Below are positions 22,509 through 44,961 of a DNA stretch of 46,847 bases, piece after piece. The notes beneath the pieces are model-generated. The model did not search any database, was not told the origin of the DNA, and saw only the letters and a program-made list of their open reading frames with translations. The DNA lies in the sequence record NC_024793.1. The stretch is one strand, 5' to 3'. How positions within the stretch are numbered: the first letter of the stretch is position 1; each line of letters starts with the position of its first letter. The translations under genes and the position numbers were made by a program. The stretch is from Escherichia phage vB_EcoS_AHP42.

Positions 22509-22553
22509 ACTATAGCAAAGGCTTCTGCTGGAGTCTTTAGCAAATCGTGCTAT
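22509..22553 (-). promoter_or_regulatory. dyad-associated promoter (minus strand) for the Cor-like operon
   Basis: Minus strand: TAGCAC-gat-TTGCTA, 22 nt, TGcTATAGT, then TCCATCGAAACGAAAC leader. Confidence 0.55.
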
Positions 22554-22650
22554 TTGATATACGCGTAACCGATGTAACTCGATGTATACAATCTCATACG
22601 CGGAAAATTGTATACGCTTTTTACGCGAAGATACGCATTATTTACACTAT

Positions 22651-22730
22651 AGAATCCTTATATAATAAGGGTTTAGAGTAATTATTATTATTACTATATT
22701 TGTTTGTATATAGTGTAACTACTCTCTATA
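22651..22730. repeat. AT-rich repeat block A, homologous to 42346..42440
   Basis: TCCTTATATAATAAGGGTTTAGAGTAATTATTATTATTACTATAT...TGTATATAGTGTA; preceded by four ATACGC repeats at 22558..22636. Confidence 0.6.
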
Positions 22731-23016
22731 GCTATGTTGGTGTGTTTTTCTAAAAGACTATGTTTGATTTCCTGTTAAGGAGGAAATGCATATAGATATA
22801 GATAGGGTGCAAAAGTGGTGGATACATTGGTTACAAGAGTTACACTCAGTATCCATGCGGCGTACAGAGTCGCAAGACGTATTCAGGTGCGTTTTACGTA
22901 GATATACAGATAGCACGAATAATCAAAACTGATGCTTCCTGATTGGTTATAGTGCACTCACCGGCAGCAGTGGTGCTGCTTTTGATGCAAAAAAAACTGC
23001 ACCACAAAATCCGGGA

Positions 23017-23766
23017 GTGAAAATAATTCAACCCCAAAAACTAGAGATGATAGATATGAATCTGATTAATATTGATGAAAACGTAACCATGAGCAGCCTT
23101 GAGATTGCTGAATTGACCGGGAAGCGTCACGATAACGTAGTAAGGGATACTAGAGAAATGCTGAATGATAATGAGATATGCTCAGGATTTAGCCAATCTC
23201 ACTCCTCAAATTTGAGGAGTGAAATTCAAAATGAATCTCGCGGCTCAAATGTGGACCGCCAGATTAAACACCCATTTGAATCTGAGTACAAAAACTCAAG
23301 AGGCCAAACTCAGCCATGCTTCAACTTACCATATCGTGAAACCATGATTTTGATGGTTGGTTACAACAGAAAGGTAGCCGCAAAGATTGTTGACCGCTGG
23401 CTACACCTTGAGCTGGAAAACAAGCTCCTTAAAGAGCACATGAAGAAGATGGTTTCACTTGATGAGGTTAAGGTTTACAAAGTTGAGACGGCATCAGCAA
23501 AGGCTGCACAGCACAGAGCTGAGGATAACTATTACGCAATTGAGAAGTTCATGTTTAAGAACATGGATAAGTGCGAAAATCCTGCAGAACTTGATGAGCA
23601 ATACTTCGATGTTAAATTCGAGTCAAATCGTTACCATGACTCTCAAGAGTTGGTTTACAAGTACCAGGCTCAGCTTGAGGTTGCTTGCGAGAAGTTAAAG
23701 GCTAAAGATGATCTGATTGCCAATCTGGTGCATAAAGGCGAACCGCTTAAGCTTGGTAAAAAGTAA
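23017..23766 (+). CDS. Rha-family phage regulatory protein
   Basis: N-terminal TMSSLEIAELTGKRHDNVVRDTREML and LPYRETMILMVGYNRKVAAKIVDRW resemble the Rha domain. True start may be an internal ATG at 23047 or 23056. Confidence 0.65.
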   Translation: MKIIQPQKLEMIDMNLINIDENVTMSSLEIAELTGKRHDNVVRDTREMLNDNEICSGFSQSHSSNLRSEIQNESRGSNVDRQIKHPFESEYKNSRGQTQPCFNLPYRETMILMVGYNRKVAAKIVDRWLHLELENKLLKEHMKKMVSLDEVKVYKVETASAKAAQHRAEDNYYAIEKFMFKNMDKCENPAELDEQYFDVKFESNRYHDSQELVYKYQAQLEVACEKLKAKDDLIANLVHKGEPLKLGKK

Positions 23767-23918
23767 TCAGTAAACAAAAACGCTTCCAGTACAGGAAACA
23801 AAAATGTTGACTGTACGGTCAATAAAAATGTTGACCGTTAACTAATAGGCAAAACCAATTGGATAAACTTAGCTACGGATGTCATAGTTAAACCACATAA
23901 ACAGAGAGAGATAGAAAA

Positions 23919-24113
23919 ATGGCATACTTCATTATTCAAGAGCGAAATAACCCTATTTTCGGAACATGTTACTACTGTGTAGATGGCTCAGGTTACACAA
24001 GCAATAAATCAGAGGCAGCAAGATTTGAGACAAAGCAGGAAGCTATTGAATACGCCCACGTGACAGATGAGGAGCTTGGTTCAGTAATGAAGATTATTAA
24101 GGTGAAGGAATAA
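23919..24113 (+). CDS. hypothetical protein
   Basis: 64 aa with RBS; stop closely precedes the exonuclease start. Confidence 0.45.
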   Translation: MAYFIIQERNNPIFGTCYYCVDGSGYTSNKSEAARFETKQEAIEYAHVTDEELGSVMKIIKVKE

Positions 24114-24116
24114 ATC

Positions 24117-25085
24117 ATGAGCTTCAAGGTTTACACTAGCGACGAGTTAACCAACGAAGCCTACCACAAGGAGTCAGACCATGTGTCTGGCTCTGGTCTG
24201 GCTCACATCTTCTCAACTTGCCCCGCTGCTTATAAGTTTGCAGAGCATGATGATAGCAATAAGGCGTTAAAGTTCGGTACATTAGCCCACACGGTTATTC
24301 TTGAAAACTATGTATTCGATGCGACTTACTATCGCCAGCCAGCGCAAGAAGAGTTTGAGGATCTGATTACTAGCAAGACTGCTTTGGCAACTCGGTTGAA
24401 GTCGATGGGTATTGCTGGAACATCTGGTAAGGATTATCCAGAATTAATGGAGATTCTGGCGCTGAGCGGTGAATCACTTAACGTATGGTGGGATATTCAG
24501 CGCTCTAGCGAGGTTAAAGCGAACGGTCGCGAGATTGTATCAGCTAAAGACTTTGACACAGTACATGCGATGCGAGAGGTGCTGTGCGGCATTCCTGCAT
24601 ACAATGCGATAGTGAACAGTAAAACCGCTCAGCGAGAGTTATCAATCTTCGGTGAGATTAACGAGTGCGGCGTTAAGGTTCGTCTTGACCATGTCGATGT
24701 CGTTGATGATGTAGTTTATATCCGTGACTACAAGACGACTAGCGACGCATCTCCATCTGGATTTGGGAGATTGGCCTTCAAGCATGGTTACTTGCTAAAA
24801 ATGGCGCTTCAGCATGATTTGTTTGTTCGCGCCTTTAATGAGAAGCGTCGAGTTGTTGTTCAGCTTCTTTGCCAGGAAAAGAAAAGCCCATTCCTTCCAA
24901 TGTGCTACACGATAACAAAAGAGCACTTAAAGGTTGGTAGATTGCAATACATGAGCGCCCTATCCACATACAAGCAATGCAAGAAACTTGATATTTGGCC
25001 TGGTTACGGATTTGGCGAAACAGAGATGGAACTGCAAGTTCCTGAGTATGAGATGAAGAAGTACGAAGATAGCACGAATAGCTAA
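24117..25085 (+). CDS. putative PD-(D/E)XK recombination exonuclease
   Basis: 322 aa with a D...D-x-K-like core (DHVDVVDDVVYIRDYKTT); immediately upstream of the Erf-like and SSB genes. Confidence 0.55.
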   Translation: MSFKVYTSDELTNEAYHKESDHVSGSGLAHIFSTCPAAYKFAEHDDSNKALKFGTLAHTVILENYVFDATYYRQPAQEEFEDLITSKTALATRLKSMGIAGTSGKDYPELMEILALSGESLNVWWDIQRSSEVKANGREIVSAKDFDTVHAMREVLCGIPAYNAIVNSKTAQRELSIFGEINECGVKVRLDHVDVVDDVVYIRDYKTTSDASPSGFGRLAFKHGYLLKMALQHDLFVRAFNEKRRVVVQLLCQEKKSPFLPMCYTITKEHLKVGRLQYMSALSTYKQCKKLDIWPGYGFGETEMELQVPEYEMKKYEDSTNS

Positions 25086-25112
25086 AACGGTATTAAATCG
25101 ATGGGGTATAGT
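25070..25112 (+). promoter_or_regulatory. dyad-associated promoter upstream of the Erf-like gene
   Basis: TAGCAC-gaa-TAGCTA overlapping the exonuclease stop, 22 nt, TATAGT at 25107..25112, then CTCATCGACAACAAAGAGAG. Confidence 0.55.
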
Positions 25113-25141
25113 TACCTCATCGACAACAAAGAGAGATAGAA

Positions 25142-25789
25142 ATGAAGACTTCAGAGAGTAACAAAACAGTTTTACAGGCACTATTTAAAGCTCGCACAGG
25201 ATTTGCGAAGGCAGCAAGAGACAAGCAGAACAGTCACCTAAAGAATAGATACGCAACACTTGATTCCATGCTGGAGGCTGTAATCCCAGCACTTGATGAT
25301 AACGACTTAATGATTATGCAGAGCATGTTAGAAACATCAACTGCTGACAATCTTAACGTAGAGACGACTCTCTATCACGTTTCTGGCGAGTGGGTTAGCT
25401 TCTTCATGATTATGCCAATCGTTAAGAAAGACCCGCAAGGAGTAGGATCTGCATTTACATACGCTCGGCGTTACTCACTAGCGGCGGCTTTGGGAATTAG
25501 TCAGTCTGACGATGATGCGCAGATGGCAGTTAAGAGCGTCAAGGACTGGAAGCGCGATATTGAGAAGGCAGAAACTCGAGAAGAGCTTATCGAAATCTAC
25601 AAATCATGCAAATCACAAGCTGACACGGCAACGTGGGGTATAGTAGAGAAAGCGATAATAGATAAACAAGCAGAGATCAAAATGGCTTCCGCAAGTGGCT
25701 TCAACCCAGCTAAGCCAAAGGAAGTTGCTAAAAAAGTTGCAAACGCAACTAATGAAGTAGTAGAATCACAATCAATCGAGCAGTTCTAA
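25142..25789 (+). CDS. Erf-like single-strand annealing protein
   Basis: 215 aa; N-terminal region (KNRYATLDSMLEAVIPALDDNDL) resembles the ERF family; sits between the exonuclease and SSB. Confidence 0.55.
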   Translation: MKTSESNKTVLQALFKARTGFAKAARDKQNSHLKNRYATLDSMLEAVIPALDDNDLMIMQSMLETSTADNLNVETTLYHVSGEWVSFFMIMPIVKKDPQGVGSAFTYARRYSLAAALGISQSDDDAQMAVKSVKDWKRDIEKAETREELIEIYKSCKSQADTATWGIVEKAIIDKQAEIKMASASGFNPAKPKEVAKKVANATNEVVESQSIEQF

Positions 25790-25836
25790 ACTAAACGGGG
25801 CTTCGGCCCCAAAATCAAACGAGAAGAGAATATAAA

Positions 25837-26259: not shown

Positions 26260-26267
26260 TGCAAAAG

Positions 26268-29081: not shown

Positions 29082-29086
29082 GATTG

Positions 29087-30062: not shown

Positions 30063-30536
30063 TTACTCTTTAGCTTTTCGTGCTTCTTCTCTTTCTTTCT
30101 TAACCTTTCGCCATGATTTACGCTGCGGCTTGGTTGCTAACTCAGCTTCTGTAACAACTCGAAGCATCTGACGCTTCTTGCATCGCAGTGTTAGAGGCTT
30201 GCCGTTACCGTCGAACTGTAAATCAGGTCGGCAGAATGTAGCCCTGAACCCCTCGCCAGTTCGCTTATATCGATTATGCGCAAGCTGTGCGCCGCGAGCT
30301 GAAATCATTCCCCGCTTACACCATTCTTCTACAGCCTGGCGCGTAACCTTTAGCTGCTTAGCTAGATTGGCCTTGCTGCCGTAGAAGTCCAATACAATCT
30401 CAAGGCGCGCCCTTAATCCTGCTCTCACTTCATCCTTTAGTACATAGTAACCTGATGGACGCTTACGCGGCTTCTTGTCTTCTGTGCGAATTGTTCCGTT
30501 GTTACCATTAAGAGTACGCTTGTCAATTGAATCCAT
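30063..30536 (-). CDS. basic HTH DNA-binding protein (candidate transcription regulator)
   Basis: 157 aa, very basic, with HTH-like SKANLAKQLKVTRQAVEEWCKRGMIS; divergent from the helicase gene, with the dyad element between the two starts. Confidence 0.5.
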   Translation of the reverse strand: MDSIDKRTLNGNNGTIRTEDKKPRKRPSGYYVLKDEVRAGLRARLEIVLDFYGSKANLAKQLKVTRQAVEEWCKRGMISARGAQLAHNRYKRTGEGFRATFCRPDLQFDGNGKPLTLRCKKRQMLRVVTEAELATKPQRKSWRKVKKEREEARKAKE

Positions 30537-30549
30537 TTTCTCACCTCAA

Positions 30550-30591
30550 TAGCACTTTTTGTTAAACATTGGTTTAGATGGCTGTTATTAT
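30550..30591 (+). promoter_or_regulatory. dyad-associated promoter upstream of the helicase gene
   Basis: TAGCAC-ttt-TTGTTA, 21 nt, TATTAT, then CAATCGAACGAAC; overlaps the divergent HTH gene upstream region. Confidence 0.55.
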
Positions 30592-30628
30592 ATCGTCAAT
30601 CGAACGAACATTAAAGGCATTTGATATT

Positions 30629-32572
30629 ATGGAAAACCGATTGAAAACAATACAAAAACAGATTGAAGAATTGGGCGAAGATAAGATTAAAGAGATTCAA
30701 ACTAAATTCACCTCTTCTAACGGCATGGTTCCGTATAGCTATCAGTGTGTTATGTACAATGAGATTGCAAAGCGCATTAGTCGCTATGAGCATCCATTTA
30801 TCGCAATGGCTTCAGTTTCTGCTGGTAAGACTCTGGTTTTTGGTATGGTTGCTAAGCGTTGCTCTGAGCTTGGCTTGCCTATGCTTGTTCTTGCTCGTCA
30901 GGCAGAGCTGGTTAGCCAGAATGCTTCTGAGATTTCTGATTACGGGGTTCCTAACTCCATTTATTGCTCTGGGCTTGGAATAAAATCATCTTATTTCCCT
31001 GTGGTGGTTGGCTCTGAGGGCACAGTAGTTGGCGGGCTTAAGAAGTCACTTGGCGATTTCTGTCCTGCGGTAGTTGCTATTGATGAGTGTCACCATATTG
31101 ATGACCAGGACATAGCGGAGGCAATTGATAACAATGAGACTGCGCAACAGGCATCAGATAAGGGGCGTAGCCAGTATACGGTCATCATCCTGACTTTAAT
31201 GGAGCGCTGCCGTGCTAAGTATGGCAAGAATCTTCGTATCTTTGGACTGACTGGTTCTCCTTTCCGTGGAACTACGCCAATAGTTGTTGAAAACAAAAAG
31301 GAGTTGGGATTTTGGCGTGAGACGGTCACAAATATCGATACAAACTACCTGGTCGAGTTCGGTTCCGTGGTTCCGACAAACTTTGGTGCTACTGATGGCG
31401 TTGGTTACGACCTGTCAGAGTTTGATGCATCATCTGAAGATGGTGTTCAGGATTACACTAAAGCCCAGCTTGAAGCCATGGATAAAAAGATTCAGGCATC
31501 TGGAACAATGACAGCGGAGATAATGAAGAAAGTATGGCTTGCCGCGAAAAACAGGAATGGAGTTCTGGTAACATGCGCAGGTGAGCGCCATTGCCACGAA
31601 GCCGCAAGTTACCTTCCTGAAGGTGAAAAGTTCTGCATTATAACTGGAAAGACTGGCGAGAAGCAGCGCAAGGAGTTGCTTGATAAGTGCTTTAGCGGGG
31701 AGATTAAATATTGCTTTCAGGTTCAGGCGCTAACCACTGGCGTAAATGTGCCTACATGGGATACAAGCGTTATTCTGCGTAAGATTGGTAGCCTTACGCT
31801 CCTGGTTCAGCTACTTGGTCGAGGAATGCGTAAGCTTAAGAAGCTCCATGAAGATAAAGGAATGGTCAAGAATGACCATTTGGTACTGGACTTCGCAGGA
31901 ACGATGGACTCTATGGCATCATTGTACTTCAATCCAATTCTTGAGCAGGCTCAATATCAGCTACGAAAGAGTAATGGCAAGGAGACTAAGCAGTGTCCAG
32001 TATGCGGAACAGAGAACAGCTTCTTTGCTCGACGTTGCATGCATATTGATGAGAATAATAATCGCTGCGAATATTTCTGGGTTAGTCGCACATGTGAAGA
32101 CCAGAAAGACCCACGAACCGGAAAGGTTATCGTTAAAGGCTGCGGAGTTCAGAATGACGTTGCAGCTAAGATTTGTAGGGGTTGCGATTGCACTTTGCTT
32201 GATCCAAATCTCAACTTAAGCGGCAAACATTACCGCAAGAACGACTGGTTTGATGTTGTTGACTTTAAGGTTGGGCTAACAAAGAACCAATCAGGAATCA
32301 TCTACAACTACATCCTTGATGATGGCATGGGTGGGACATTCAAAGCTCATGAGGTTTTCTTTGTAGAGTCTGACCATCGAGTATGTAAAACGCTCTGGTT
32401 GAACAATGGAATTAAAGGTCACGTAGTCGACATGAACGCTAAGCGATATATGGCTGCATATCGCAATGCTCGCAAGATTATGGAGTATGCGCAGTACATC
32501 CATGCCCCTAAGAGGGTAACTCACCGCAAGACCGCTAAAGGTGGCGATAATATTGCTAATAAGGAGTTCTAA
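30629..32572 (+). CDS. SF2 helicase (DEAH-type) with C-terminal zinc ribbons
   Basis: Walker A SAGKT, DECH box (VAIDECHH) and C-terminal Cys clusters. The track start at 30578 lies inside the conserved promoter/leader, so the ATG at 30629 is used. Confidence 0.75.
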   Translation: MENRLKTIQKQIEELGEDKIKEIQTKFTSSNGMVPYSYQCVMYNEIAKRISRYEHPFIAMASVSAGKTLVFGMVAKRCSELGLPMLVLARQAELVSQNASEISDYGVPNSIYCSGLGIKSSYFPVVVGSEGTVVGGLKKSLGDFCPAVVAIDECHHIDDQDIAEAIDNNETAQQASDKGRSQYTVIILTLMERCRAKYGKNLRIFGLTGSPFRGTTPIVVENKKELGFWRETVTNIDTNYLVEFGSVVPTNFGATDGVGYDLSEFDASSEDGVQDYTKAQLEAMDKKIQASGTMTAEIMKKVWLAAKNRNGVLVTCAGERHCHEAASYLPEGEKFCIITGKTGEKQRKELLDKCFSGEIKYCFQVQALTTGVNVPTWDTSVILRKIGSLTLLVQLLGRGMRKLKKLHEDKGMVKNDHLVLDFAGTMDSMASLYFNPILEQAQYQLRKSNGKETKQCPVCGTENSFFARRCMHIDENNNRCEYFWVSRTCEDQKDPRTGKVIVKGCGVQNDVAAKICRGCDCTLLDPNLNLSGKHYRKNDWFDVVDFKVGLTKNQSGIIYNYILDDGMGGTFKAHEVFFVESDHRVCKTLWLNNGIKGHVVDMNAKRYMAAYRNARKIMEYAQYIHAPKRVTHRKTAKGGDNIANKEF

Positions 32573-32961
32573 TGGTTAAGGTTTTTCACGACAAAACAAG
32601 CACGGACAAGGCTAAAGAGGTTGTTCACCAAATAAATTCAATAGCTTGGGTTCGCCACAACCATCCAGAGATATTTGCTTTTCACGTGAAGAATGAAGGT
32701 CTCAAGTCTATCGGCACAGCAATGAAGGACAAGCAGGAGGGAGTAATTAAGGGTGTATCAGATATTCTACTGATTGGACCAAATGGCTTTGCCGCAATAG
32801 AGCTTAAGCGAGCAATAAAATCAGATAGCAAGGTTTCAAAGGAGCAAAAGGAGTTCCTGGAAAAGGTATCAGAAACAGGAGGTTACGCGGCAATCTGTTA
32901 TGGGTTTGAAATGTTTAAGTTGGCAATTACAGATTATCTATCAAATGGCACGAATTGCTAA
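32572..32961 (+). CDS. putative VRR-NUC nuclease
   Basis: 129 aa with GVSDILLIGPNGFAAIELKRA...SKEQKEFLEKVSETGGYAAICYG, resembling the VRR-NUC D-E-K core; ATGG overlap with the helicase stop. Confidence 0.55.
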   Translation: MVKVFHDKTSTDKAKEVVHQINSIAWVRHNHPEIFAFHVKNEGLKSIGTAMKDKQEGVIKGVSDILLIGPNGFAAIELKRAIKSDSKVSKEQKEFLEKVSETGGYAAICYGFEMFKLAITDYLSNGTNC

Positions 32962-32988
32962 AGAGATTTCGCAAGGATGCGATATAGT
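32946..32988 (+). promoter_or_regulatory. dyad-associated promoter
   Basis: TGGCAC-gaa-TTGCTA overlapping the VRR-NUC stop, 22 nt, TATAGT, then TTCATCGAAACGAAGAGAG. Confidence 0.55.
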
Positions 32989-33019
32989 TACTTCATCGAA
33001 ACGAAGAGAGAGAAACAAA

Positions 33020-33214
33020 ATGACTACTACCTACACTGAAAAGCTGTACAAGTCACGCAAAACTGGTTATGAATATGAATTAGCAATCACCCCTGAGGGT
33101 TATATTCTTGATGATGGAGACGGTTACTCATTCGAAGTTAGCCCAACATACAAAGATGATTTAGAGACTGTTAAAAACGCATTCGGCGAAAAATTTGATG
33201 AGGTGTCAGAATAA
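33020..33214 (+). CDS. hypothetical protein
   Basis: 64 aa from the ATG at 33020, downstream of a palindrome-associated promoter and RBS; the track start at 32900 overlaps the promoter. Confidence 0.5.
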   Translation: MTTTYTEKLYKSRKTGYEYELAITPEGYILDDGDGYSFEVSPTYKDDLETVKNAFGEKFDEVSE

Positions 33215-33629: not shown

Positions 33630-33630
33630 A

Positions 33631-33673
33631 TAGCACTTTTTGTTAAAACTAAAATACAAGGATGGATTATATT
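33631..33673 (+). promoter_or_regulatory. dyad-associated promoter
   Basis: TAGCAC-ttt-TTGTTA, 22 nt, TATATT. Confidence 0.5.
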
Positions 33674-33703
33674 AATTACATCAGCAAATGAGAGGGTTAA
33701 GAG

Positions 33704-33829
33704 ATGAAAATTGTAGACAAAGAGATGTTCGAGATTGCGCAGTCTTTCGCAAATGACGCAGTTAAGACTGGATCTGAATATTGCTGGATGTGCGCTCGAG
33801 AATATTTAAAAATGGCTTACGGCCTATGA
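33704..33829 (+). CDS. hypothetical small protein (41 aa)
   Basis: Not in the track (under 60 aa); good RBS GAGAGGGTTAAGAG-ATG after a palindrome-associated promoter; stop overlaps the next ATG as ATGA. Confidence 0.45.
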   Translation: MKIVDKEMFEIAQSFANDAVKTGSEYCWMCAREYLKMAYGL

Positions 33830-34065: not shown

Positions 34066-34319
34066 ATTTACCTGGTCTAGATTTTGCTGAGAGTAAGTAT
34101 CAGGTTGTGTTTTTTGGTGAGAAGCCTTATCGGAAGATTCCTTTCTCTGAGTGGATTCCTCCGGACTACCTCGATGTACTGGTGCAAATTGAGATTGGTA
34201 AAGCTGAGTTGATGTACTATTCGCCAGGTTGCAATATGATGATGCCTAGTGAGTATTCACCAGCAATTTCTGCTCTAGAAACTGAGTTTCTTGATTACTG
34301 GCTAAAAGAAGTAAAATAG
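34062..34319 (+). CDS. hypothetical protein
   Basis: 85 aa, ATGA overlap with the upstream gene; its TAG stop lies inside the next dyad element. Confidence 0.45.
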   Translation: MNLPGLDFAESKYQVVFFGEKPYRKIPFSEWIPPDYLDVLVQIEIGKAELMYYSPGCNMMMPSEYSPAISALETEFLDYWLKEVK

Positions 34320-34358
34320 CACTTTTTGTTAAAAACATCGCCACGGATGGCGTATAGT
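34317..34358 (+). promoter_or_regulatory. dyad-associated promoter upstream of the phosphoesterase unit
   Basis: TAGCAC-ttt-TTGTTA, 21 nt, TATAGT, then TTCATCGAAACGAGAG. Confidence 0.55.
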
Positions 34359-34386
34359 GTGTTCATCGAAACGAGAGACGCTTCAG

Positions 34387-34455
34387 ATGAAAACATTACT
34401 ACCGTTGCTGGCGGTACCAGTAACCTTTATAATCATGTACTTCATAATCTGCTAA
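34387..34455 (+). CDS. hydrophobic mini-ORF (22 aa, MKTLLPLLAVPVTFIIMYFIIC)
   Basis: Sits between a palindrome-associated promoter and the metallophosphoesterase gene; RBS-like GAGAG upstream. Confidence 0.3.
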   Translation: MKTLLPLLAVPVTFIIMYFIIC

Positions 34456-34469
34456 TAGGAAATTAAATA

Positions 34470-35606
34470 ATGGCTATCGCTAAAATCACCAACGAAGAGT
34501 TAAAGCAAGAACTGGCTAACGGTATGACTAACAAGGCAATCGCAGAGAAGTACGGTATGAATATTCGTAACGTAGAGCTGCGTCGCAGCAAGCTGGCTAA
34601 GGCTGGGGATGGTCACGGTCGCGATGTGAGTAACCTAATTCCTCAGGGCTACATGGTTAAAGGTGTATCTAGCCTTGTTGATAATGATGGCAATGTGAAG
34701 TTGCAATGGGTTAAGTCCTCTATTGATGCAGAGAAGCTTGAGGAGATGATGAATCAAGCGCGAGAGGCATTCTCTAGCGAGCTACCAAAAGAAAAAGCAG
34801 TTAAATCTGAAGGTCTGAATTTTGATGAAGATACTTTAGCTATGTATCCAGTATTTGACCTTCACATTGGCGCAATGGCCCACAAGCATGAGTGCGGAGA
34901 AAACTACGACACAGCAACGGCAGAGAAAGTAATGAACGATTATTTTGACTACGCCGTACAGAAATCTCCAAATTCAAAGAATGCTGTACTAGTGCTAGGA
35001 GGTGATCTGCTTCATTATGATTCCTTGGAAGCCAAAACTCCAGCCAGTGGTCACATCCTGGACAGTGACAGTCGCTACGCCAAGATTGTTTATGTTTGCA
35101 TTCGAGCGGTTCGCCGCGCAATTCGAAACATGCTTAGCAAACATGAAAACGTAGAGGTTAAAGTTATATCTGGTAATCATGATGAAAGTGGTATGGTTTG
35201 GTTGCGGGCTGCGCTTGCTGCATTTTATGAGGAAGAGCCACGCGTTAGTATTGATGTTAGTCCCGCGGCAATGATGGTAACTAAGTTTGGTTCTACAATG
35301 CTTGGTTTCACTCACGGGCATCAAATGCGTAAAGCTGATACTCGCCTTTCGGTTATGGCTACTGACTGGCGACGTGACTTTGGTTTAAGTGATTATGTAT
35401 ACACCCACTCAGGCCACTGGCATTCACAGAAGATTACAGAGACAAATCTTGGTATTGATGAGGTTCATGGTCAGCTTGGTTCACCAGATGCATATAGTGC
35501 GAATGGCGGGTGGCGCTCACAAAGGCAGGCTGCGGTAATCATATATCATAAAGAGTTTGGTGAGGTTGGTCGTTTTATCTGTCGCCCAGAAATGTTTAAT
35601 AAATAG
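34470..35606 (+). CDS. HTH-domain metallophosphoesterase (calcineurin-like, Mre11/SbcD-type motif order)
   Basis: N-terminal HTH-like MTNKAIAEKYGMNIRNVELRR, then DLHIG, GGDLLHYD, GNHDE and GHWH in the canonical metallophosphoesterase order. Confidence 0.6.
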   Translation: MAIAKITNEELKQELANGMTNKAIAEKYGMNIRNVELRRSKLAKAGDGHGRDVSNLIPQGYMVKGVSSLVDNDGNVKLQWVKSSIDAEKLEEMMNQAREAFSSELPKEKAVKSEGLNFDEDTLAMYPVFDLHIGAMAHKHECGENYDTATAEKVMNDYFDYAVQKSPNSKNAVLVLGGDLLHYDSLEAKTPASGHILDSDSRYAKIVYVCIRAVRRAIRNMLSKHENVEVKVISGNHDESGMVWLRAALAAFYEEEPRVSIDVSPAAMMVTKFGSTMLGFTHGHQMRKADTRLSVMATDWRRDFGLSDYVYTHSGHWHSQKITETNLGIDEVHGQLGSPDAYSANGGWRSQRQAAVIIYHKEFGEVGRFICRPEMFNK

Positions 35607-35671
35607 CACAAATAGTCAAGAAACTACCCGCGAAAGCGGGTATTTTTGTTTCACACAACTGAGGAGGTAAT

Positions 35672-36163
35672 ATGAATTGGAATGATTTTCTCGAATATAG
35701 AGATGGAAAGCTTTACTGGACAGATCCACACTCAACAAAATTTAAGCCAGGGGATGAGGCTGGATGTAGGCATCATAGGGGTTATCATTATATAAGGAGA
35801 TATAACACCGCGATGTCAAGGCATAGGATAGTATTGACAATGTTTAATGGAGAGATACCGGAAGGCATGGAGATTGATCACATAGACCATGACGTTGATA
35901 ATGATCGGATTGAAAACCTAAGAATGGTTACAAGGAGGCAGAACAATCAAAACAAAAAGCTAGATGAAAGAAATACTAGCGGACATGTTGGGGTTAGTTG
36001 GAACAAGAAGACAAACAAATGGAGAGCAATGATAGGTATAAAGGATAATGACGGGAAGCGGAAAACGGTATATGTTTATTATGGTGACTCTTTCGACGAC
36101 GCGGTATTGGCAAGGAAGAAAGCTGAAGCTGAATACTCATTTCATGAAAATCACGGAAAATAG
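35672..36163 (+). CDS. HNH homing endonuclease (AP2-type), paralog of 15979..16467
   Basis: MNWNDFLEYRDGKLYW N-terminus plus HNH core; strong GAGGAGG RBS; AGG/AGA-rich codon usage. Confidence 0.75.
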   Translation: MNWNDFLEYRDGKLYWTDPHSTKFKPGDEAGCRHHRGYHYIRRYNTAMSRHRIVLTMFNGEIPEGMEIDHIDHDVDNDRIENLRMVTRRQNNQNKKLDERNTSGHVGVSWNKKTNKWRAMIGIKDNDGKRKTVYVYYGDSFDDAVLARKKAEAEYSFHENHGK

Positions 36164-36203
36164 CACTAATTGCTAAAACACAAATCAAAAGATGGGGTAT
36201 ATT
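36161..36203 (+). promoter_or_regulatory. dyad-associated promoter
   Basis: TAGCAC-taa-TTGCTA overlapping the HNH stop, 22 nt, TATATT, then CTCCATCAAAACAAAACGAGAGG. Confidence 0.55.
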
Positions 36204-36236
36204 TACTCCATCAAAACAAAACGAGAGGATACAAAG

Positions 36237-36422
36237 ATGCCTAAGTTCACACAATCAGATGCACAGATTGAAGTTAAAGATGTTGGTTTTGGTAAGACGT
36301 TTCGCATTGCACAAGCTTATGGCTCTAGCGAAGAAGATGTAAAAGTTGACACTATCAATCTTACTGCTAAGAATGCTCGTGAAATTGCCTACGCAATCCT
36401 AGCGGCACTTGGAGAGCGCTAA
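36237..36422 (+). CDS. hypothetical protein
   Basis: 61 aa from the ATG at 36237 (RBS GAGAGG), downstream of a palindrome-associated promoter; the track start at 36192 overlaps the -10 element. Confidence 0.45.
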   Translation: MPKFTQSDAQIEVKDVGFGKTFRIAQAYGSSEEDVKVDTINLTAKNAREIAYAILAALGER

Positions 36423-36911: not shown

Positions 36912-37127
36912 ATGAAGCATTTCTATGACGCAGCCGCCTTGTCCGGTAGCGGAGTAGCTATGGGCGGCGGCTTATCTGACAATACAATCATCGGCATTAT
37001 TGGCTTAATCGTAGCCGTGTGCTTTGGTATCTTTGGGGCATGGCTGCGCTGGAGGGACAGTAAGGCGCTACACAAAGCACTTGAGGATGGAGATATCCGT
37101 GAGGCAATGAGAATCAGGAGTAAGTGA
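36912..37127 (+). CDS. putative holin (pinholin-like)
   Basis: 71 aa with a transmembrane segment IIGIIGLIVAVCFGIFGAW and a charged C-terminus; directly upstream of the SAR endolysin. Confidence 0.55.
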   Translation: MKHFYDAAALSGSGVAMGGGLSDNTIIGIIGLIVAVCFGIFGAWLRWRDSKALHKALEDGDIREAMRIRSK

Positions 37128-39972: not shown

Positions 39973-40152
39973 TTACTTGATACGAACTTCAATCATCTGA
40001 CCTTTATGAGGAAGATACAGCTTTGCGCGACCTCTAATCATTACGGTGATGATATTCTCCTTAAGGTCAACGTGAAGTACTTTGCGGAACAGAGGCCCCA
40101 TTTTTACCATCATGCCAGGTTTGATGTTTTCGATAGTAGTCATGATATCCAT
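39973..40152 (-). CDS. hypothetical small protein (59 aa)
   Basis: Not in the track; first ORF after a palindrome-associated promoter, with RBS AAGGG; followed by a UUCG hairpin before the 529-aa gene. Confidence 0.4.
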   Translation of the reverse strand: MDIMTTIENIKPGMMVKMGPLFRKVLHVDLKENIITVMIRGRAKLYLPHKGQMIEVRIK

Positions 40153-40190
40153 TTTTTAGCCCTTTTAATTTATTTCGTTTCGATGAAGAG

Positions 40191-40235
40191 AATATATCAA
40201 TTTTTGTTGTTAAGTTCTTTAGCAAAAAGTGCTAT
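40191..40235 (-). promoter_or_regulatory. dyad-associated promoter (minus strand)
   Basis: Minus strand: TAGCAC-ttt-TTGCTA, 22 nt, TATATT, then TCTTCATCGAAACGAAA; drives 39973..40152 and downstream genes. Confidence 0.55.
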
Positions 40236-40351
40236 TAAAGACCAACCAGACATTTGCCAACTACAACAGCGATTGCGCCCATGAAGCCAAAGAAACCAAA
40301 CTTAATTACTTGTTCCATTACCGCATCAACTGCTTTAGAGATGTTTTTCAT
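40235..40351 (-). CDS. small membrane protein (38 aa)
   Basis: From the internal ATG at 40351 with RBS AAGGTG; C-terminal hydrophobic segment FGFFGFMGAIAVVVGKCLVGL; the longer track ORF lacks an RBS. Confidence 0.4.
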   Translation of the reverse strand: MKNISKAVDAVMEQVIKFGFFGFMGAIAVVVGKCLVGL

Positions 40352-40388
40352 TTTGTTCACCTTAGTTTTTGTCTTCTTGATGGAAACA

Positions 40389-40434
40389 AATATACCCGCC
40401 GAAGCGGGTACTGTCATTAGCAAAAAGTGCTATT
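40389..40434 (-). promoter_or_regulatory. dyad-associated promoter (minus strand) with embedded UUCG hairpin
   Basis: Minus strand: TAGCAC-ttt-TTGCTA, a spacer containing hairpin ACCCGC-TTCG-GCGGGT, then TATATT and TTCCATCAAG. Confidence 0.5.
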
Positions 40435-41014: not shown

Positions 41015-41317
41015 TTAGTTAGCGTTATGACGTTCGATATAGTCGCGGATTGTTTCGCCTACGCTTTTAGCGGCACCAAAAGTGCCCTTTGCGTGGCGTG
41101 AATCGCGGTACGTCTGGAAGAATTTACGAGCGATGTTTGCGAACATTGAACCAGTCACGCGAGCATCACCGAAATTTGTTTCGATAGCGTTGCTAATGCC
41201 ATCCTTGAACTCATTTTCAGTCATGAACATCTCTGCCATGCCAGCAGTCTCGAAAAGGTTAGCTAATTCATTCATGTTGTTATGGTCTTCGGCTGTAAAC
41301 AGGTTCATGTTAATCAT
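41015..41317 (-). CDS. hypothetical protein
   Basis: 100 aa downstream of a minus-strand palindrome-associated promoter. Confidence 0.45.
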   Translation of the reverse strand: MINMNLFTAEDHNNMNELANLFETAGMAEMFMTENEFKDGISNAIETNFGDARVTGSMFANIARKFFQTYRDSRHAKGTFGAAKSVGETIRDYIERHNAN

Positions 41318-41351
41318 CTTCGTGATTCCTTAGTTTCGTTTCGATGAGATG

Positions 41352-41395
41352 AATATACAATAAAAGCCCCGAAGGGCTTTAGCAATTCGTGCTAT
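41352..41395 (-). promoter_or_regulatory. dyad-associated promoter (minus strand) with embedded hairpin
   Basis: Minus strand: TAGCAC-gaa-TTGCTA, a spacer containing AGCCC-TTCG-GGGCT, then TGtATATT and CATCTCATCGAAACGAAAC. Confidence 0.5.
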
Positions 41396-41784: not shown

Positions 41785-41999
41785 GCTACCACCTCAATTT
41801 CTTCATTACTAACAACAAACTTTTCACCTTGAAAGATTGCAAGAGTACCATCAACATATACATGATCCTTTAAACTCATCATGTAGAAGCCTTCAATCTC
41901 GTAAACTTCCACCTCCTCACCAATCTGATAGCCAAGTTCGGCAAGGCTCATTGAATCTTCGTCGTACCTAATTTCGTTGTTGATAATAATCGCTTTCAT
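41781..41999 (-). CDS. hypothetical protein
   Basis: 72 aa, first gene after the minus-strand promoter at 42028..42072; RBS GAGGAG. Confidence 0.45.
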   Translation of the reverse strand: MKAIIINNEIRYDEDSMSLAELGYQIGEEVEVYEIEGFYMMSLKDHVYVDGTLAIFQGEKFVVSNEEIEVVA

Positions 42000-42027
42000 G
42001 TTTCTTCTCCTCTCTGTTGATTAGCAA

Positions 42028-42072
42028 ACTATAGCCAGTCATGGTGGATTTGTCTTTAGCAAAAAGTGCTAT
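42028..42072 (-). promoter_or_regulatory. dyad-associated promoter (minus strand)
   Basis: Minus strand: TAGCAC-ttt-TTGCTA, 22 nt, TATAGT, then RBS GAGGAG for 41781..41999. Confidence 0.55.
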
Positions 42073-42345
42073 TCGTCAGATTTATGGATTGTTGCAGGCA
42101 TTGCGATGATTAGCATGACTATTACACATAAAGCAATATTTCATCGAGTGCAACAGGTTTATTGATTGTTGCCAGTTTGGCAATGATGGATGGATGGATT
42201 GAATGAAAGGAGGTCTGGATCAAATAGTTGGTTGGTTTTATCGCTCGCGGAGAGACTTCTTTTATATACGCGTAGTCCGCTGTCTACCGATTGTCGACCG
42301 TATCCACATTTACAATTTATACGCCTTGATATAATCCATATACAC

Positions 42346-42440
42346 TAAAATATCCTTATATATAAAGGACTTAGACTATTATTATTATTATATATAGTAT
42401 TATGTATATATAGCGTATCATCTGTACGCCACTATATAGG
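42346..42440. repeat. AT-rich repeat block B, homologous to 22651..22730
   Basis: TCCTTATATATAAAGGACTTAGACTATTATTATTATTATATAT...TGTATATATAGCGTA; flanked by TATACGC repeats, a (GATG)x3 run and the palindrome TTCCTACAcTGTAGGAA. Confidence 0.6.
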
Positions 42441-42630
42441 TTGGTTTGCTTAAATTTCTATTTTTATTCCTACACTGTAGGAATTGTACTACCTTGTAGG
42501 AAAATATAGGAGGATATAGCTAGAACCACCTCATCTATATGTAGACGCACGTAGACGCCTGTACACACCCAGCAACGATGCGGCATGCAGGGCAAAAAGC
42601 GTATCAATTTTAAAATAAACAAAAAATACA

Positions 42631-42659
42631 TTTATATACACGTAAATCTTTGCTATAGT
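42631..42659 (+). promoter_or_regulatory. putative early promoter without dyad (extended -10 TGcTATAGT, AT-rich UP-like region)
   Basis: TTTATA, 17 bp, TGC-TATAGT, followed by the conserved TTTCATCGAAACGAGG leader; AT-rich upstream; first promoter after the long noncoding region. Confidence 0.45.
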
Positions 42660-42708
42660 CATTTCATCGAAACGAGGCAACAAACAACAATCAACGAGAG
42701 GAATTATC

Positions 42709-43251
42709 ATGAGCAAAACGACCTTAGGTGAAGTAATTCGATTCATGGCTAAAAAGGCACTCCAGTCAGAAGATAAGGAGTTCAAGGTTCCAGTTCGAGA
42801 TATTTACCGACAAATTAGAGGTCATGATTACCCGGAAATGGAGACTGATGATAAAACCGGGGATATTATCAACCTTGGAGAGCGGAAGTTGAGTGAGTTA
42901 AAGAACTCATACATTCATAATACATTGTCACGAATGAGAGAGTTGCGTGAGGCTAAGTATATCGCCCGTTATCAATTCATCTGGATTGATGCGGATGGTG
43001 AAGATACCACGCCCCGCCAGTATGATGGCGATGGTGCTGATAAATACCTGCTAATCCATCTCACCGAGGGGGTTAAGGAGCCAAAAGCAAAACAAAGAGA
43101 GAAAGAAGAAAAGGAGCGGGCTGTTATTGAGAAGTTCAAATCTCGCTTGCTTAAGTTATCACCTAACGTACTGGATTTTGAAGGTGATGAGCTGACTGGC
43201 GCAGTTAAGGCTATCCGCATGTATCAAGAGATGATCAAGGAGTTTAACTAA
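42709..43251 (+). CDS. hypothetical early protein
   Basis: 180 aa, first gene after a long AT-rich regulatory region; promoter is extended -10 TGcTATAGT without the dyad. Confidence 0.5.
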   Translation: MSKTTLGEVIRFMAKKALQSEDKEFKVPVRDIYRQIRGHDYPEMETDDKTGDIINLGERKLSELKNSYIHNTLSRMRELREAKYIARYQFIWIDADGEDTTPRQYDGDGADKYLLIHLTEGVKEPKAKQREKEEKERAVIEKFKSRLLKLSPNVLDFEGDELTGAVKAIRMYQEMIKEFN

Positions 43252-43811
43252 TGTTTGATTTCGACGAAGATAAGTTAACTGATGACCAGGTGATGGAAGT
43301 CGCCAGGCAAGATAACCTGCCGCCACTTCGTGTGGCAATCAATACTAATGGATACCGCCAATCATTCAATTTCTGGCCCAGCGCCGAAGAGATGCTGTGC
43401 GTCAAGTTGAGCTACAAATACGGCGTAGTAGTGAGCAGGATTAGCCGCCAGGGCTGGAATGGAGTGGTTGGCATTCGATCTCTATACGAGGCAATCCGAA
43501 AGGTCCAGCCATTCGTCGGGCGCGAAGGGATTATGCATGACCTGACAAATAACATCATCCCAGAACTACAGGAGGCGGGAATTGTTTGCCTCATTGGCGA
43601 TAAGATTTATGTTCATCCGGCCCTGGTTGGGATGGATAAGGACGACGTGCAAAACTGGTGCAGCCAGTACCGATCCGACGCGCCACGCTCACACTACGTG
43701 CCACCGCAAACAACAATCCATGGCTATGATGCCGATGAGGTGGAGAAGGCCATACAGTTCTACCGGAAAGCGAAAGCTCTCCTGAATGGTGAATATAGCA
43801 CAAATTGCTAA
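43251..43811 (+). CDS. hypothetical protein, minimised paralog of the 529-aa protein
   Basis: N-terminus MFDFDEDKLTDDQVMEVARQDNLPPLRVAINTNGYRQS and C-terminal block GVVGIRSLYEAIRKVQPF...CLIGDKIYVHPALVG match the termini of 38349..39938; the central domain is absent. Confidence 0.55.
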   Translation: MFDFDEDKLTDDQVMEVARQDNLPPLRVAINTNGYRQSFNFWPSAEEMLCVKLSYKYGVVVSRISRQGWNGVVGIRSLYEAIRKVQPFVGREGIMHDLTNNIIPELQEAGIVCLIGDKIYVHPALVGMDKDDVQNWCSQYRSDAPRSHYVPPQTTIHGYDADEVEKAIQFYRKAKALLNGEYSTNC

Positions 43812-43838
43812 ACAATAAATTGGGTAGTCAGCTATGAT
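43796..43838 (+). promoter_or_regulatory. dyad-associated promoter
   Basis: TAGCAC-aaa-TTGCTA (codes the C-terminus of the upstream protein), 22 nt, TATGAT. Confidence 0.5.
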
Positions 43839-43868
43839 TACCCTATCAACAACAAAGAGGAAATAACC

Positions 43869-44099
43869 ATGAAAGCTGTAATTATTGAAGATTTCGCAGG
43901 CGCTCGCACAGAGGTGTCAACCTCAGTACATTACGAAGGCATCGTTAGTATTGATATCAACTTCGGTAACCATGGCGACGGATGTGCGCTTGCTCACTAT
44001 ACTGCCTACCAAGCGCGCAAACTGGCGGCGGCGCTTATTCAGGCGGCTGAGGGGATTGAGAATGGTAAGGGTTACACTGGTCGGCGTAGGAGCGAGTAA
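43869..44099 (+). CDS. hypothetical protein
   Basis: 76 aa with RBS AAGAGGAAATAACC-ATG, downstream of a palindrome-associated promoter. Confidence 0.45.
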   Translation: MKAVIIEDFAGARTEVSTSVHYEGIVSIDINFGNHGDGCALAHYTAYQARKLAAALIQAAEGIENGKGYTGRRRSE

Positions 44100-44149
44100 A
44101 TTCAGTATCATAATTGAAGCAAATGACAACTAAACGATAGGAAGCTAAC

Positions 44150-44383
44150 ATGATTACCATTAACCTTTCAGAAGAGCATGCTGCCGAGATTAGGGCTATA
44201 CTAATGCATTGCCTTAGCCGCAAGATGTTTAGCGCGTCAGAATCGCTTACAGAGGTTGTAAATCAGATTCGAAATCAGGAGTTTGAAGATATACTGCCGT
44301 GGGAAGAGGACTTGGCCTGGCTTGAGTACGAGCAGATTTGCACGGCACTATCAGGCTGCCAACTGGCTAGCCAATACAAGTGA
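44150..44383 (+). CDS. hypothetical protein
   Basis: 77 aa with RBS TAGGAAG. Confidence 0.45.
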   Translation: MITINLSEEHAAEIRAILMHCLSRKMFSASESLTEVVNQIRNQEFEDILPWEEDLAWLEYEQICTALSGCQLASQYK

Positions 44384-44621
44384 CAATCTACGAACACACA
44401 TTCAGCAGCAGGGGTATCGATATGCTCCTGCATTACGTAGACGAACAATACGCCATGTTGATGCAGAGGACGCACGGCGGCACTATAACGAGGATTGAGA
44501 TATGTACTACTATATGATTCCTATTGAAGATTTAATGCTTGATTACAGTCATGGCTACATTGCGGTATGCGACGCTGATACAATGACTGCATATGTTGAC
44601 TTTGAATTTGAGGATTGAGAT

Positions 44622-44921
44622 ATGAGTAAGTACGAAAAAGAGATTATTGGCCTGGACGGCACCAAGACTACGGTTGATGTATATCGCGTCATCGCAGCAT
44701 TTGGCGTAACGGACCCGGCACTACAGCATGCCATCAAAAAGGTACTGTGCAGCGGCATTCGAACACGACATAAGGATTACCCTACCGACATCAATGAGGC
44801 CATTGTATCGCTTCAGAAGGCCATAGAATTCCATGATCAAAGGGGTGCACATGTCCAGGAACTTATAGACAAGTATCGCAACGGACCTAAACATTATCTT
44901 GATAGCTGGAGCAACAAATAG
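44622..44921 (+). CDS. hypothetical protein
   Basis: 99 aa with RBS GAGGATTGAGAT-ATG; its TAG stop lies in the next dyad element. Confidence 0.45.
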   Translation: MSKYEKEIIGLDGTKTTVDVYRVIAAFGVTDPALQHAIKKVLCSGIRTRHKDYPTDINEAIVSLQKAIEFHDQRGAHVQELIDKYRNGPKHYLDSWSNK

Positions 44922-44961
44922 CACAAATTGCTAAACATCCATCGCAAGGATGCGTTACCAT
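44919..44961 (+). promoter_or_regulatory. dyad-associated promoter
   Basis: TAGCAC-aaa-TTGCTA overlapping the upstream stop, 22 nt, TACCAT, then TTTATCGAAATGAGACGAGG. Confidence 0.45.

Follow-up and report, generated by a model that had tools for sequence, protein, structure and literature searches.

Marbox-like promoter cassettes in the genome of Escherichia phage vB_EcoS_AHP42: candidate early promoters with a proposed reading by host activators

The right half of the genome of Escherichia phage vB_EcoS_AHP42 (NC_024793.1; the whole stretch of 46,847 bp was analysed and is called the window) carries a family of repeated intergenic elements. The window contains 16 copies of one promoter cassette and an additional member without the upstream box, and every copy faces the next gene. 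Judging from sequence and geometry, we are confident that these elements are sigma70 promoters that use an upstream factor site at -41. The upstream box itself is likely a near-consensus marbox, i.e., a site for the E. coli activators MarA, SoxS and Rob, set in the class II geometry of the micF promoter. The reading that we slightly favour is that these are early sigma70 promoters lacking a -35 hexamer that would be activated by host Rob, MarA or SoxS.

The cassette and its copies in the genome

A search for TAGCAC-N3-TTGCTA with at most two mismatches gave 24 strand-matches versus 4.8 expected, a number reached by none of 100 shuffles. The original prediction, made from the sequence alone, had listed 13 copies of a promoter/operator element between positions 22,509 and 44,961; all of them exist and, when printed in register, show the architecture that had been described. 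Five of these are on the minus strand, with dyads at 22538, 40220, 40418, 41380 and 42057, and for them the coordinates given earlier (22509, 40191, 40389, 41352 and 42028) correspond to the low end of the -10 hexamer. The degenerate copies proposed at 15909 and 35603 are real but weak, and each is located ahead of an HNH endonuclease gene. The list lacked two members: one at 22910-22960, ahead of a Rha-family gene, and the box-less one at 42651-42712, where an AT-rich (UP-like) upstream region takes the place of the box. The box-to-start-codon distance is 73-77 nt in typical window copies (Table 1). The proposal that these elements set the transcription units of the right half holds in outline, with the qualification that several cassettes have no terminator upstream, so that read-through is likely.

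The window very probably corresponds to the whole genome of a Rogunavirus (Drexlerviridae, T1-like), opened at the small terminase gene. A megablast search with positions 22000-46000 matched Rogunavirus genomes, and the best match was vB_EcoS_AKS96 (AKS96), with 99% identity over 92% of the query. According to the AKS96 annotation, the right half contains early, replication, recombination and lysis genes; the GenBank record of AKS96 has one annotated promoter, 'TTGACA(N23)TATAAT'. Canonical -35/-10 sigma70 promoters are not enriched in the right half of the window (30 versus 42 expected, and 20 versus 20), and for this reason they were rejected as the source of early transcription.

Promoter anatomy

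Elements of the window, of T1 and of Klebsiella phage Sweeny were pooled with those of 120 viral contig stretches, which gave 395 distinct elements. The gap between the 15-mer and TAnnnT is 22 bp in 232 of these elements, 23 bp in 25, 24 bp in 21 and 21 bp in 10; it ranges from 21 to 23 bp in the window, and the pool shows a single sharp peak at 22. The 232 elements with the 22-bp gap constitute the family profile, in which A2 and T6 of TAnnnT are invariant by this selection. The profile reads aAATAGCAC-kww-TTGYTAAAac, followed by 18 unconstrained bases, G at -14, TAtaaT, a C-rich discriminator, A at +1, and tCGAAAC-AA. The G at -14, which is extended -10-like, is present in 199 of the 232 elements (86%), and T at -15 in 108 (47%); the full TGn precedes the -10 in some window copies (22538, 30550, 40220 and 42651). 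The ATCGAAACGA block starts 6 nt past the hexamer, and its A falls at the expected +1 in 201 of the 232.

The position 17 bp upstream of the -10 reads AAAACn and the -10 is of the sigma70 type TAnnnT, in agreement with the absence of a -35 hexamer noted originally. The upstream element is centred at about -41/-42, i.e., at the position of class II activators, as had been claimed; the class II box has been placed at -41.5 (PMC9638938) and at about -41 (PMC8811837). A layout formed by a -10, no -35 and an upstream element at the class II position implies a trans-acting factor, and on this point the original proposal stands. TTGCTA was ruled out as a -35 because at 22 bp it is too far from the -10, and TGcTAAAAc within the box was ruled out as an extended -10, its hexamer lacking the final T.

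The conserved leader, ATCGAAACGA(A/G), begins at the predicted +1 and is A/C-rich as far as the ribosome-binding site. It is a real feature, as described before, and it is separable from the box, given that copies in phage KP15 with a normal -35 and no box have the same leader. No known RNA family was detected for it with Rfam, in which only the tRNA matched. We take TACCcCATCGAAACGA to be similar to the T7 early promoters A3 and A1 in their discriminator and initial transcribed sequence; this likeness would argue for the core promoter or escape being under selection, and not for a separate signal.

The upstream box

The box was originally described as a near-palindromic dyad. Its reading as a site for a symmetric dimer did not survive a symmetry test carried out with 166 dereplicated elements, for which a single mismatch at most was allowed over the 12 specified bases. 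The G at position 3 showed no substitutions, whereas its mirror position 13 (C) was substituted in 44 of the 166, in 41 of these cases to T (p = 4e-15); likewise, positions 1 and 15 showed 8 and 0 substitutions, and positions 6 and 10 showed 6 and 0. Both flanks of the box are A-rich on the same strand in the 232-element profile, unlike what would be expected for a palindrome. In addition, copies in which one 'half' is destroyed hold the exact distance to the -10, both in the window (ATAGCACGAATAATCAAAA at 22910 and ATAGCACAAATAGTCAAGA at 35603) and in T1, where ACGGCATAAATAGCTAAAC, ATAGCACAAAAAGGTAAAC and ATAGCACCTTTTACCTAAC (25021, 31443 and 42510) likewise conform to the asymmetric code of the marbox. 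A dyad operator is thereby rejected for the box; its mirror positions are unequally constrained, and the copies with a broken half still fit the marbox code.

The site recognized by MarA, SoxS and Rob is degenerate and asymmetric, with the consensus AYnGCACnnWnnRYYAAAY (PMC3709825). With at most one mismatch to this consensus, which is independent of the phage sequences, 15 sites are found in the window versus 1.0 expected, and 21 in T1 versus 0.96 expected; none of 100 shuffles reached 15 or 21, respectively. The 232-element profile fits 13 of the 14 specified marbox positions, including the flanking A before T, W at box position 10, only Y at position 14 (C in 159, T in 71) and AAA at 16-18, and 53 of the 67 substitutions seen in the 166 elements are permitted by the marbox code. 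By our rough estimate, an arbitrary conserved motif would fit the marbox positions with a probability of about 5e-7, which becomes about 3e-3 once the few hundred factors known, both strands and several registers are taken into account.

The geometry is also that of a known promoter. In E. coli micF the distance from the start of the box, ACAGCACTGAATGTCAAAAC, to the -10 hexamer TAGAAT is 38 bp, and GCAC is on the distal side. The phage offset from box to -10 is 38 bp in the 232 pooled elements and 37-39 bp in the window, and the orientation is as in micF, since all copies have GCAC distal and AAA proximal to the -10 and to the gene, i.e., the forward marbox orientation. When 24 elements were located through the -10 and leader alone, the marbox was found at exactly 38 bp in 21 and at 39 bp in one. 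Rob at micF reads -47G, -45A, -38G, -37T and the A:T pairs at -35/-34 (PMC9178005), and every one of the bases that it contacts is conserved in the phage boxes; structural work has indicated that Rob occludes sigma region 4 from the -35 (PMC9178005). The mar marbox of the E. coli chromosome, on the consensus strand (reverse complement), ATGCCACGTTTTGCTAAATC, is identical to the T-type phage box in 16 of 20 positions and has the 10-mer TTTTGCTAAA in common with it. The cassettes share with the class II MarA/SoxS/Rob (RamA) promoters of Enterobacteriaceae, of which micF is the archetype, an asymmetric 20-bp box, its orientation, the 38-bp offset, the placement of the box over the -35 region, the lack of a good -35 hexamer and a sigma70 -10. 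On the other hand, they serve phage genes, there are 16-21 near-consensus copies per 47-kb genome, their boxes are more conserved than host marboxes, and they add the G at -14 and the conserved initial transcribed sequence ATCGAAACGA.

Proposed activation by host regulators

In the mechanism that we propose, each element would be a sigma70-dependent early promoter without a usable -35 hexamer. It would be formed by a 20-bp box from about -50 to -31, a gap of 18-19 bp, TAnnnT with G at -14, and a C-rich discriminator; transcription would start at the A of CATCGAAACGA, and a short A/C-rich leader would lead into the ribosome-binding site. The box would be the site for the monomeric activators MarA, SoxS and Rob of E. 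coli (RamA in Klebsiella), each of which has a pair of helix-turn-helix (HTH) motifs. The host activator bound to it would replace the contact between sigma region 4 and the -35, touching sigma region 4 as well as the RNA polymerase alpha subunit's C-terminal domain (alpha-CTD), and host RNA polymerase would thereby be recruited to about 16 phage transcription units. Rob, which is constitutively present at a high level (PMC9178005), would be the activator already there at infection, and bile salts activate it, whereas MarA and SoxS would be found in cells stressed by antibiotics or oxidants. The early class of these promoters is presumed, and we infer from sequence comparison the start site, the binding of Rob, MarA or SoxS and the dependence of transcription on these activators.

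Several observations weigh against activation by these host proteins. Rob is largely sequestered and inactive without inducers (PMC9178005). Unstressed cells contain little MarA and SoxS. The phage boxes show more conservation than the marbox code demands, with A at box position 3 and TT at 11-12 nearly invariant, and the last Y of the consensus is mostly A in them, as it also is in micF. Growth of T1-like phages on laboratory cells without stress is fast, and decades of selection for T1 resistance in E. coli gave receptor mutants, whereas rob mutants are not known from it. Finally, a Vibrio phage and a phage whose recorded host is Pseudomonas have the element in unaltered form. The excess of conservation could mean that some other protein reads the box, instead or as well, or that the copies descend from a common ancestor. 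It is speculation on our part that the redundancy of three activators, a basal activity due to the G at -14, or the box-less promoter at 42651 reconcile phage growth and host genetics with a host activator.

Hairpins around the -10 region

Watson-Crick stems of at least 6 bp, with one arm in the spacer (-25 to -17) and the other in the discriminator/start region (-8 to +1), are present in 25% of 120 dereplicated elements versus 3.9% of cross-element controls. The arms of these bracketing stems vary between copies (GGGGTAA/TTACCCC, AAGGCCA/TGGCCTT, AAGGGCAT/ATGCCCTT and GAGGTCA/TGACCTC). A further 23% of the elements have a terminator-type hairpin between the box and the -10, e.g., AAACCCGC-tacg-GCGGGTTT, and a hairpin of either kind is found in about 48% of the 120 elements (30 bracketing plus 28 local). 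In the window, the copies at 25070, 36161 and 43796 have stems of 9-11 bp over the -10 and +1 (25098-25123, 36191-36212 and 43822-43843; z = -4.2, -4.6 and -3.0, respectively), and those at 40418 and 41380 carry terminator hairpins. By analogy, the terminator forms make sense as composite terminator-promoter units similar to the PeSL cassettes described below, while the stems that bracket the -10 could be foldable only in read-through RNA or in extruded DNA.

Related elements in other phages

A direct repeat of 21 nt, aaATAGCACnnnTTGnTAAAA, was previously reported in phage TLS at 21 locations, of which the 18 not wholly within genes were listed; the repeats are oriented with transcription, about 76 nt before start codons, and similar ones were noticed in T1, Rtp and Rogue1 (PMC11447400). 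In the parts of that paper that deal with transcription, three canonical promoters were found in TLS, and the function of the repeat was left open as a stoperator, an enhancer-binding site or an UP element (PMC11447400). This repeat is the same element, as judged by its consensus, its subtypes with T, G or A central triplets, its orientation and its distance to the start codon. In the transcription section and supplementary table of PMC11447400, and by a term search, no fixed -10 at 22 bp, no +1 or leader and no asymmetry were found; the term search also returned no mention of MarA, SoxS, marbox or AraC, and no search was aimed at earlier reports of a marbox link. As far as these parts of the paper go, the repeat appears to have been published already for TLS, T1, Rtp and Rogue1, and the anatomy of -10, start and leader, the asymmetry and the marbox identity appear to be new. 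In the literature searched, no start-site or transcriptome study of Drexlerviridae was found.

Some T4-like phages of Enterobacteriaceae, with genomes of about 175-180 kb, also carry the full cassette (box, hairpin, -10 and CATCGAAACGAAA leader), in 4-8 copies each: the Slopekvirus KP15, Pseudotevenvirus-size (RB16-size) genomes, CfP1 and GAP161. In these Slopekvirus and Pseudotevenvirus myoviruses the cassettes adjoin small open reading frames (ORFs) unrelated to T1-like genes. The GenBank record of KP15 labels them 'putative middle promoter; discovered using MEME', and the KP15/KP27 paper contains MEME predictions only. Some of the T4-like boxes are 38 bp from the -10, with no -35, whereas others are 48-49 bp from the -10 beside a good -35; in the latter arrangement the -35 is embedded in a stem-loop (e.g., TTGCAA-17-TATATT), and the box, with its orientation unchanged, is displaced upstream by one helical turn. 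According to our reading of PMC9638938, this is similar to the forward class I scaffold of the zwf type (-62 to +13, micF orientation). That unrelated phages sharing a host group carry one invariant element speaks for a reader supplied by the host. Gene transfer was rejected as the cause of the shared cassette, given that tblastn of ORFs from the T4-like loci against T1-like genomes recovered no cassette-adjacent small genes, but only HNH endonucleases, a kinase and a weak helicase match. The degenerate cassettes at 15909 and 35603 precede HNH genes, and an HNH ORF is the main protein in common with the T4-like loci, which hints that homing endonucleases may carry the cassette between phages.

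The organization of these promoters can be compared with that of other phage systems. The Mu Pm promoter with Mor, the Mu late promoters with C, and lambda PRM with cI at OR2 have a -10, no -35, and an activator near -42. The logic is shared, in that a protein bound beside sigma region 4 makes up for a weak core promoter; however, the Mu and lambda activators are phage-encoded dimers that bind symmetric sites, whereas the asymmetric site of the cassettes matches a monomeric activator of the host, and no activator encoded by the phage was found. The T4 MotA box, (a/t)(a/t)(a/t)TGCTTtA, is centred at -30, 11-13 bp from the -10. The T4 middle promoters controlled by MotA/AsiA likewise lack a -35, and TTTGCTAAA is superficially like a MotA box; a MotA box was ruled out, as TTGCTA lies 21-23 bp from the -10. 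The PeSL cassettes of T4-type phages (PMC2839356, PMC4122927) also are short composites of a promoter and a stem-loop that are repeated many times and flank small variable genes. Nevertheless, the PeSLs of RB49 and phi1 have consensus -35/-10 sigma70 promoters with an AT-rich upstream region and no marbox, while the T1-type cassettes have no -35 and only about half of them have a hairpin. By the definition of a PeSL (consensus -35/-10 plus a stable stem-loop), the T1-type copies fall outside this class and some of the T4-like copies fall within it.

Alternative readers and explanations

A MarA-like activator encoded by the phage was rejected: phmmer with MarA and SoxS sequences gave no match among 745 six-frame ORFs, and no HTH_18 or HTH_AraC Pfam domain was detected among 57 non-structural ORFs. 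The Rha-family protein (23017..23766) is unlikely as a family-wide factor, given that, from a reading of the annotation only, the T1 record has no Rha-type regulator. Fis, IHF, CRP, FNR and OxyR gave no fit when their consensus sequences were compared by eye.

The candidate put forward in the original prediction was the Cro-like HTH protein encoded at 30063..30536. It is unlikely, on sequence and structural comparison, that the box is the operator of this protein, a dimer of which would occupy TAGCA-N5-TGCTA at -42 and activate the promoters, similarly to lambda cI at PRM or Mu Mor at Pm, or later shut them off. Such a dimer would find half-sites 10 bp apart, and the gene is core to the family (823 phage records). 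It has its own near-consensus sigma70 promoter (window 30537-30628), with a perfect TATAAT that is kept in T1 (TTGAAT-17-TATAAT, T1 36432-36524) and in Sweeny (TTGTCA-16-TATAAT, 36967-37057); according to the supplement of PMC11447400, P57, one of the only three canonical promoters reported for TLS, is at the same place. This promoter overlaps the box-bearing promoter of the helicase gene, and its transcript would run across the marbox before the start codon at 30536. This layout suggests mutually exclusive divergent promoters, and a protein bound to the box would repress the Cro-like gene, as in a classical autoregulatory arrangement; it fits an immediate-early, self-limited regulator, which keeps a phage factor in play without showing that it binds the box. 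Against this, alignment of 35 homologues places the putative recognition helix with the protein's more variable segments, and its exposed residues differ (RQAVEE, HQTIQQ, YGTIRG, VCRLTN), whereas the DNA element is invariant, being identical even in Vibrio phage Vc1, whose Cro-like protein is only 48% identical; the conserved parts are an N-terminal arm, DKRTxNGNNGTxRG, and a C-terminal motif, GFRAxFCRPDLxFDxNGK. The protein model (pLDDT 90) matched other structures only in its central helices, to Cro proteins such as Xfaso 1 and N15, and thus has a single Cro-type HTH. None of the 113 clusters of homologues was found on a contig larger than 78 kb, yet T4-like phages carry the same cassette. 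The strongly unequal constraints of the half-sites, and the exact spacing held by copies with a broken half, also argue against this protein.

The remaining explanations require no phage protein. It is rather improbable that no activator is involved and that the box is an UP-like element for alpha-CTD which, together with the G at -14, makes strong constitutive early promoters. This idea was raised by the authors of PMC11447400 and would explain the good growth of these phages without host stress; in addition, A-tracts flank the box, the T-type centre TTTTT-GCT-AAAA resembles an UP core, and the box-less member at 42651 has an AT-rich upstream region. However, the invariant GCAC, the G at box position 13 and the GAA-type centres are unexpected if alpha-CTD reads A/T-tracts in the minor groove, the A-tract at -35 to -32 is not at the UP position, and T at -15 occurs in only 47%. 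It is very improbable that the box is read by another host protein that recognizes 5-5-5 palindromes, notably Lrp, although the 15-mer agrees with 11 of the 12 conserved positions of the Lrp consensus yAGhAwATTwTdCTr (PMC5554404). Lrp is abundant and conserved among the hosts; nevertheless, it leaves unexplained the invariant C6, the TT at 10-11, the flanking A, the AAA and the asymmetry of the half-sites, and by our calculation its match has a chance probability about 40 times that of the marbox match. Moreover, Lrp is not known to act from a single site at -42. Lastly, the cassettes might be mainly portable recombination modules of the PeSL kind that shuffle small genes within and between phage families, with promoter activity being secondary; this is compatible with the other explanations, and as the principal role we consider it doubtful, with only a small probability. 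The composite terminator-promoter forms are common (in about 23% of 120 elements a terminator hairpin separates the box from the -10), the small ORFs beside the cassette in Drexlerviridae are unrelated to those beside it in Slopekvirus/Pseudotevenvirus, mobile HNH genes follow the degenerate copies, and PeSLs offer a precedent (PMC2839356, PMC4122927). In contrast, the strict 38-bp geometry, the -10 invariants (A2 and T6), the gene-facing orientation and the fixed distance to the start codon indicate selection for transcription, as recombination through homology alone would call for none of them.

Coordinates and neighbouring features

Table 1. Cassette copies in the window and features of the Cro-like gene; boxes are given as marboxes, offsets are from box to -10, and starts (+1) are predicted
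Feature	Position	Strand	Upstream box	-10 hexamer and +1	Start codon and next gene	Remarks
Weak degenerate copy, doubtful member	15909..15981	+	4 marbox mismatches	TATCCT at offset 38; TATAAT 5 bp further on, at 15952	Precedes HNH-type endonuclease gene inserted in tail module	
Cassette	22468..22553	-	22553..22535, ATAGCACGATTTGCTAAAG	TATAGT 22514..22509, after TGc; +1 A 22502	ATG 22470..22468, Cor-like lipoprotein gene (AKS96 annotation; Pfam Phage_lipoprotein)	Leader ATCGAAACGAAAC
Cassette, absent from the earlier list	22910..22960	+	ATAGCACGAATAATCAAAA; right 'half-dyad' broken, marbox code intact	TATAGT 22948..22953, offset 38 bp	Upstream of Rha-family gene	Without ATCGAAACGA leader
Cassette	25069..25144	+	ATAGCACGAATAGCTAAAA	TATAGT 25107..25112; +1 A 25119	ATG 25142 (ERF recombinase)	Hairpin of 11 bp, from -21 to +4
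Cassette	30549..30631	+	ATAGCACTTTTTGTTAAAC, perfect	TATTAT 30586..30591, offset 37	ATG 30629 (helicase)	
Cassette	32945..33022	+	ATGGCACGAATTGCTAAAG	TATAGT 32983..32988; +1 A 32995	ATG 33020	
Cassette	33630..33706	+	ATAGCACTTTTTGTTAAAA	TATATT 33668..33673; +1 A 33680	ATG 33704	
Cassette	34316..34389	+	ATAGCACTTTTTGTTAAAA	TATAGT 34353..34358, offset 37	Precedes metallophosphoesterase gene	Leader CATCGAAACGAGAG
Degenerate cassette	35603..35674	+	ATAGCACAAATAGTCAAGA (micF-like GTCAA B site)	TATTTT 35641..35646, offset 37 from 35604 or 38 from box A 35603	ATG 35672 (HNH endonuclease)	Terminator-type hairpin in spacer
Cassette	36160..36239	+	ATAGCACTAATTGCTAAAA	TATATT 36198..36203; +1 A 36210	ATG 36237	9-bp hairpin over -10 and +1
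Cassette	40150..40235	-	40235..40217	TATATT 40196..40191; +1 A 40184	ATG 40152	
Cassette	40349..40433	-	40433..40415, 2 mismatches	TATATT 40394..40389	ATG 40351	Terminator-type hairpin in spacer
Cassette	41315..41395	-	41395..41377	TATATT 41357..41352; +1 A 41345	ATG 41317	Terminator hairpin GCCC-TTCG-GGGC plus T-tract in spacer
Cassette	41997..42072	-	42072..42054	TATAGT 42033..42028; +1 A 42021	ATG 41999 (first gene of leftward early arm)	
Box-less member	42651..42712	+		TGcTATAGT, hexamer 42654..42659; +1 A 42666	ATG 42709 (DUF7174)	Leader ATCGAAACGAGG; candidate activator-independent promoter of rightward early arm
Cassette	43795..43871	+	ATAGCACAAATTGCTAAAC, perfect	TATGAT 43833..43838; +1 A 43845	ATG 43869	Hairpin over -10
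Cassette	44918..44996	+	ATAGCACAAATTGCTAAAC, perfect	TACCAT 44956..44961; +1 A 44968	ATG 44994	
Cro-like HTH protein, T1 gp23 homologue	30063..30536	-				157 amino acids; weak matches to P22_Cro and YdaS
Sigma70-type -10 of the Cro-like gene	30592..30587	-		TATAAT, perfect		Overlaps helicase -10 on the other strand

A perfect match to the marbox, ATGGCACAAATGGTTAAAC, at 17804-17822 lies on the start codon of the gene for a tail protein of 1141 amino acids, and it is probably a chance match in coding sequence. The AKS96 coding sequence that matches 34326-34466 (AKS96_43) begins inside the marbox, upstream of the transcription start predicted at about 34365; probably its annotated start is wrong or this ORF is not a gene. 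Three genes for HNH-type endonucleases are present, at 15859-16467 (in the tail-gene block), 35672-36163 and 550-1077.

The structural block, at 1-21229 on the plus strand, has no good copy of the cassette and many terminators, and on the circularly permuted genome the structural genes are directly downstream of the rightward early arm. Given this position and the lack of a good cassette, late expression may rely on read-through or antitermination from early promoters. The rightward early genes include one for tRNA-Arg (anticodon CCU), at 46266-46341, in keeping with reports on this phage group. At 22560-22790 and 42270-42500, two non-coding, AT-rich stretches of some 200 bp that are related to each other (77% mean column identity) carry a TTATTATTATTA run and TATATAGTGTA and flank the early region at both borders; these stretches could be origins, packaging-related sites or strong promoter regions.

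Biological implications

How T1-like phages start transcription has been a standing question ever since the T1 sequence became available. Very few canonical promoters can be found in these phages (three in TLS), and the marbox reading gives a candidate function to a conserved 21-nt repeat that previously had none assigned. The cassettes may also offer compact, strong, activator-dependent promoter parts. We regard it as a real possibility, held with slightly less than even confidence, that most early transcription of Drexlerviridae and, independently, that of some T4-like phages of Enterobacteriaceae is coupled to the host mar/sox/rob stress regulon through consensus class II marboxes. If this is true, it would explain why the same cassette is present in unrelated phages of the same hosts, and it would bear on phage therapy in the gut, where bile activates Rob, as well as on the combination of phages with drugs that induce MarA or SoxS. 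The phage genome would capture RNA polymerase pre-loaded with Rob, MarA, SoxS or RamA, and phage development would be tuned by bile salts, antibiotics, salicylate and oxidative stress, i.e., by the same signals that make the host drug-tolerant.

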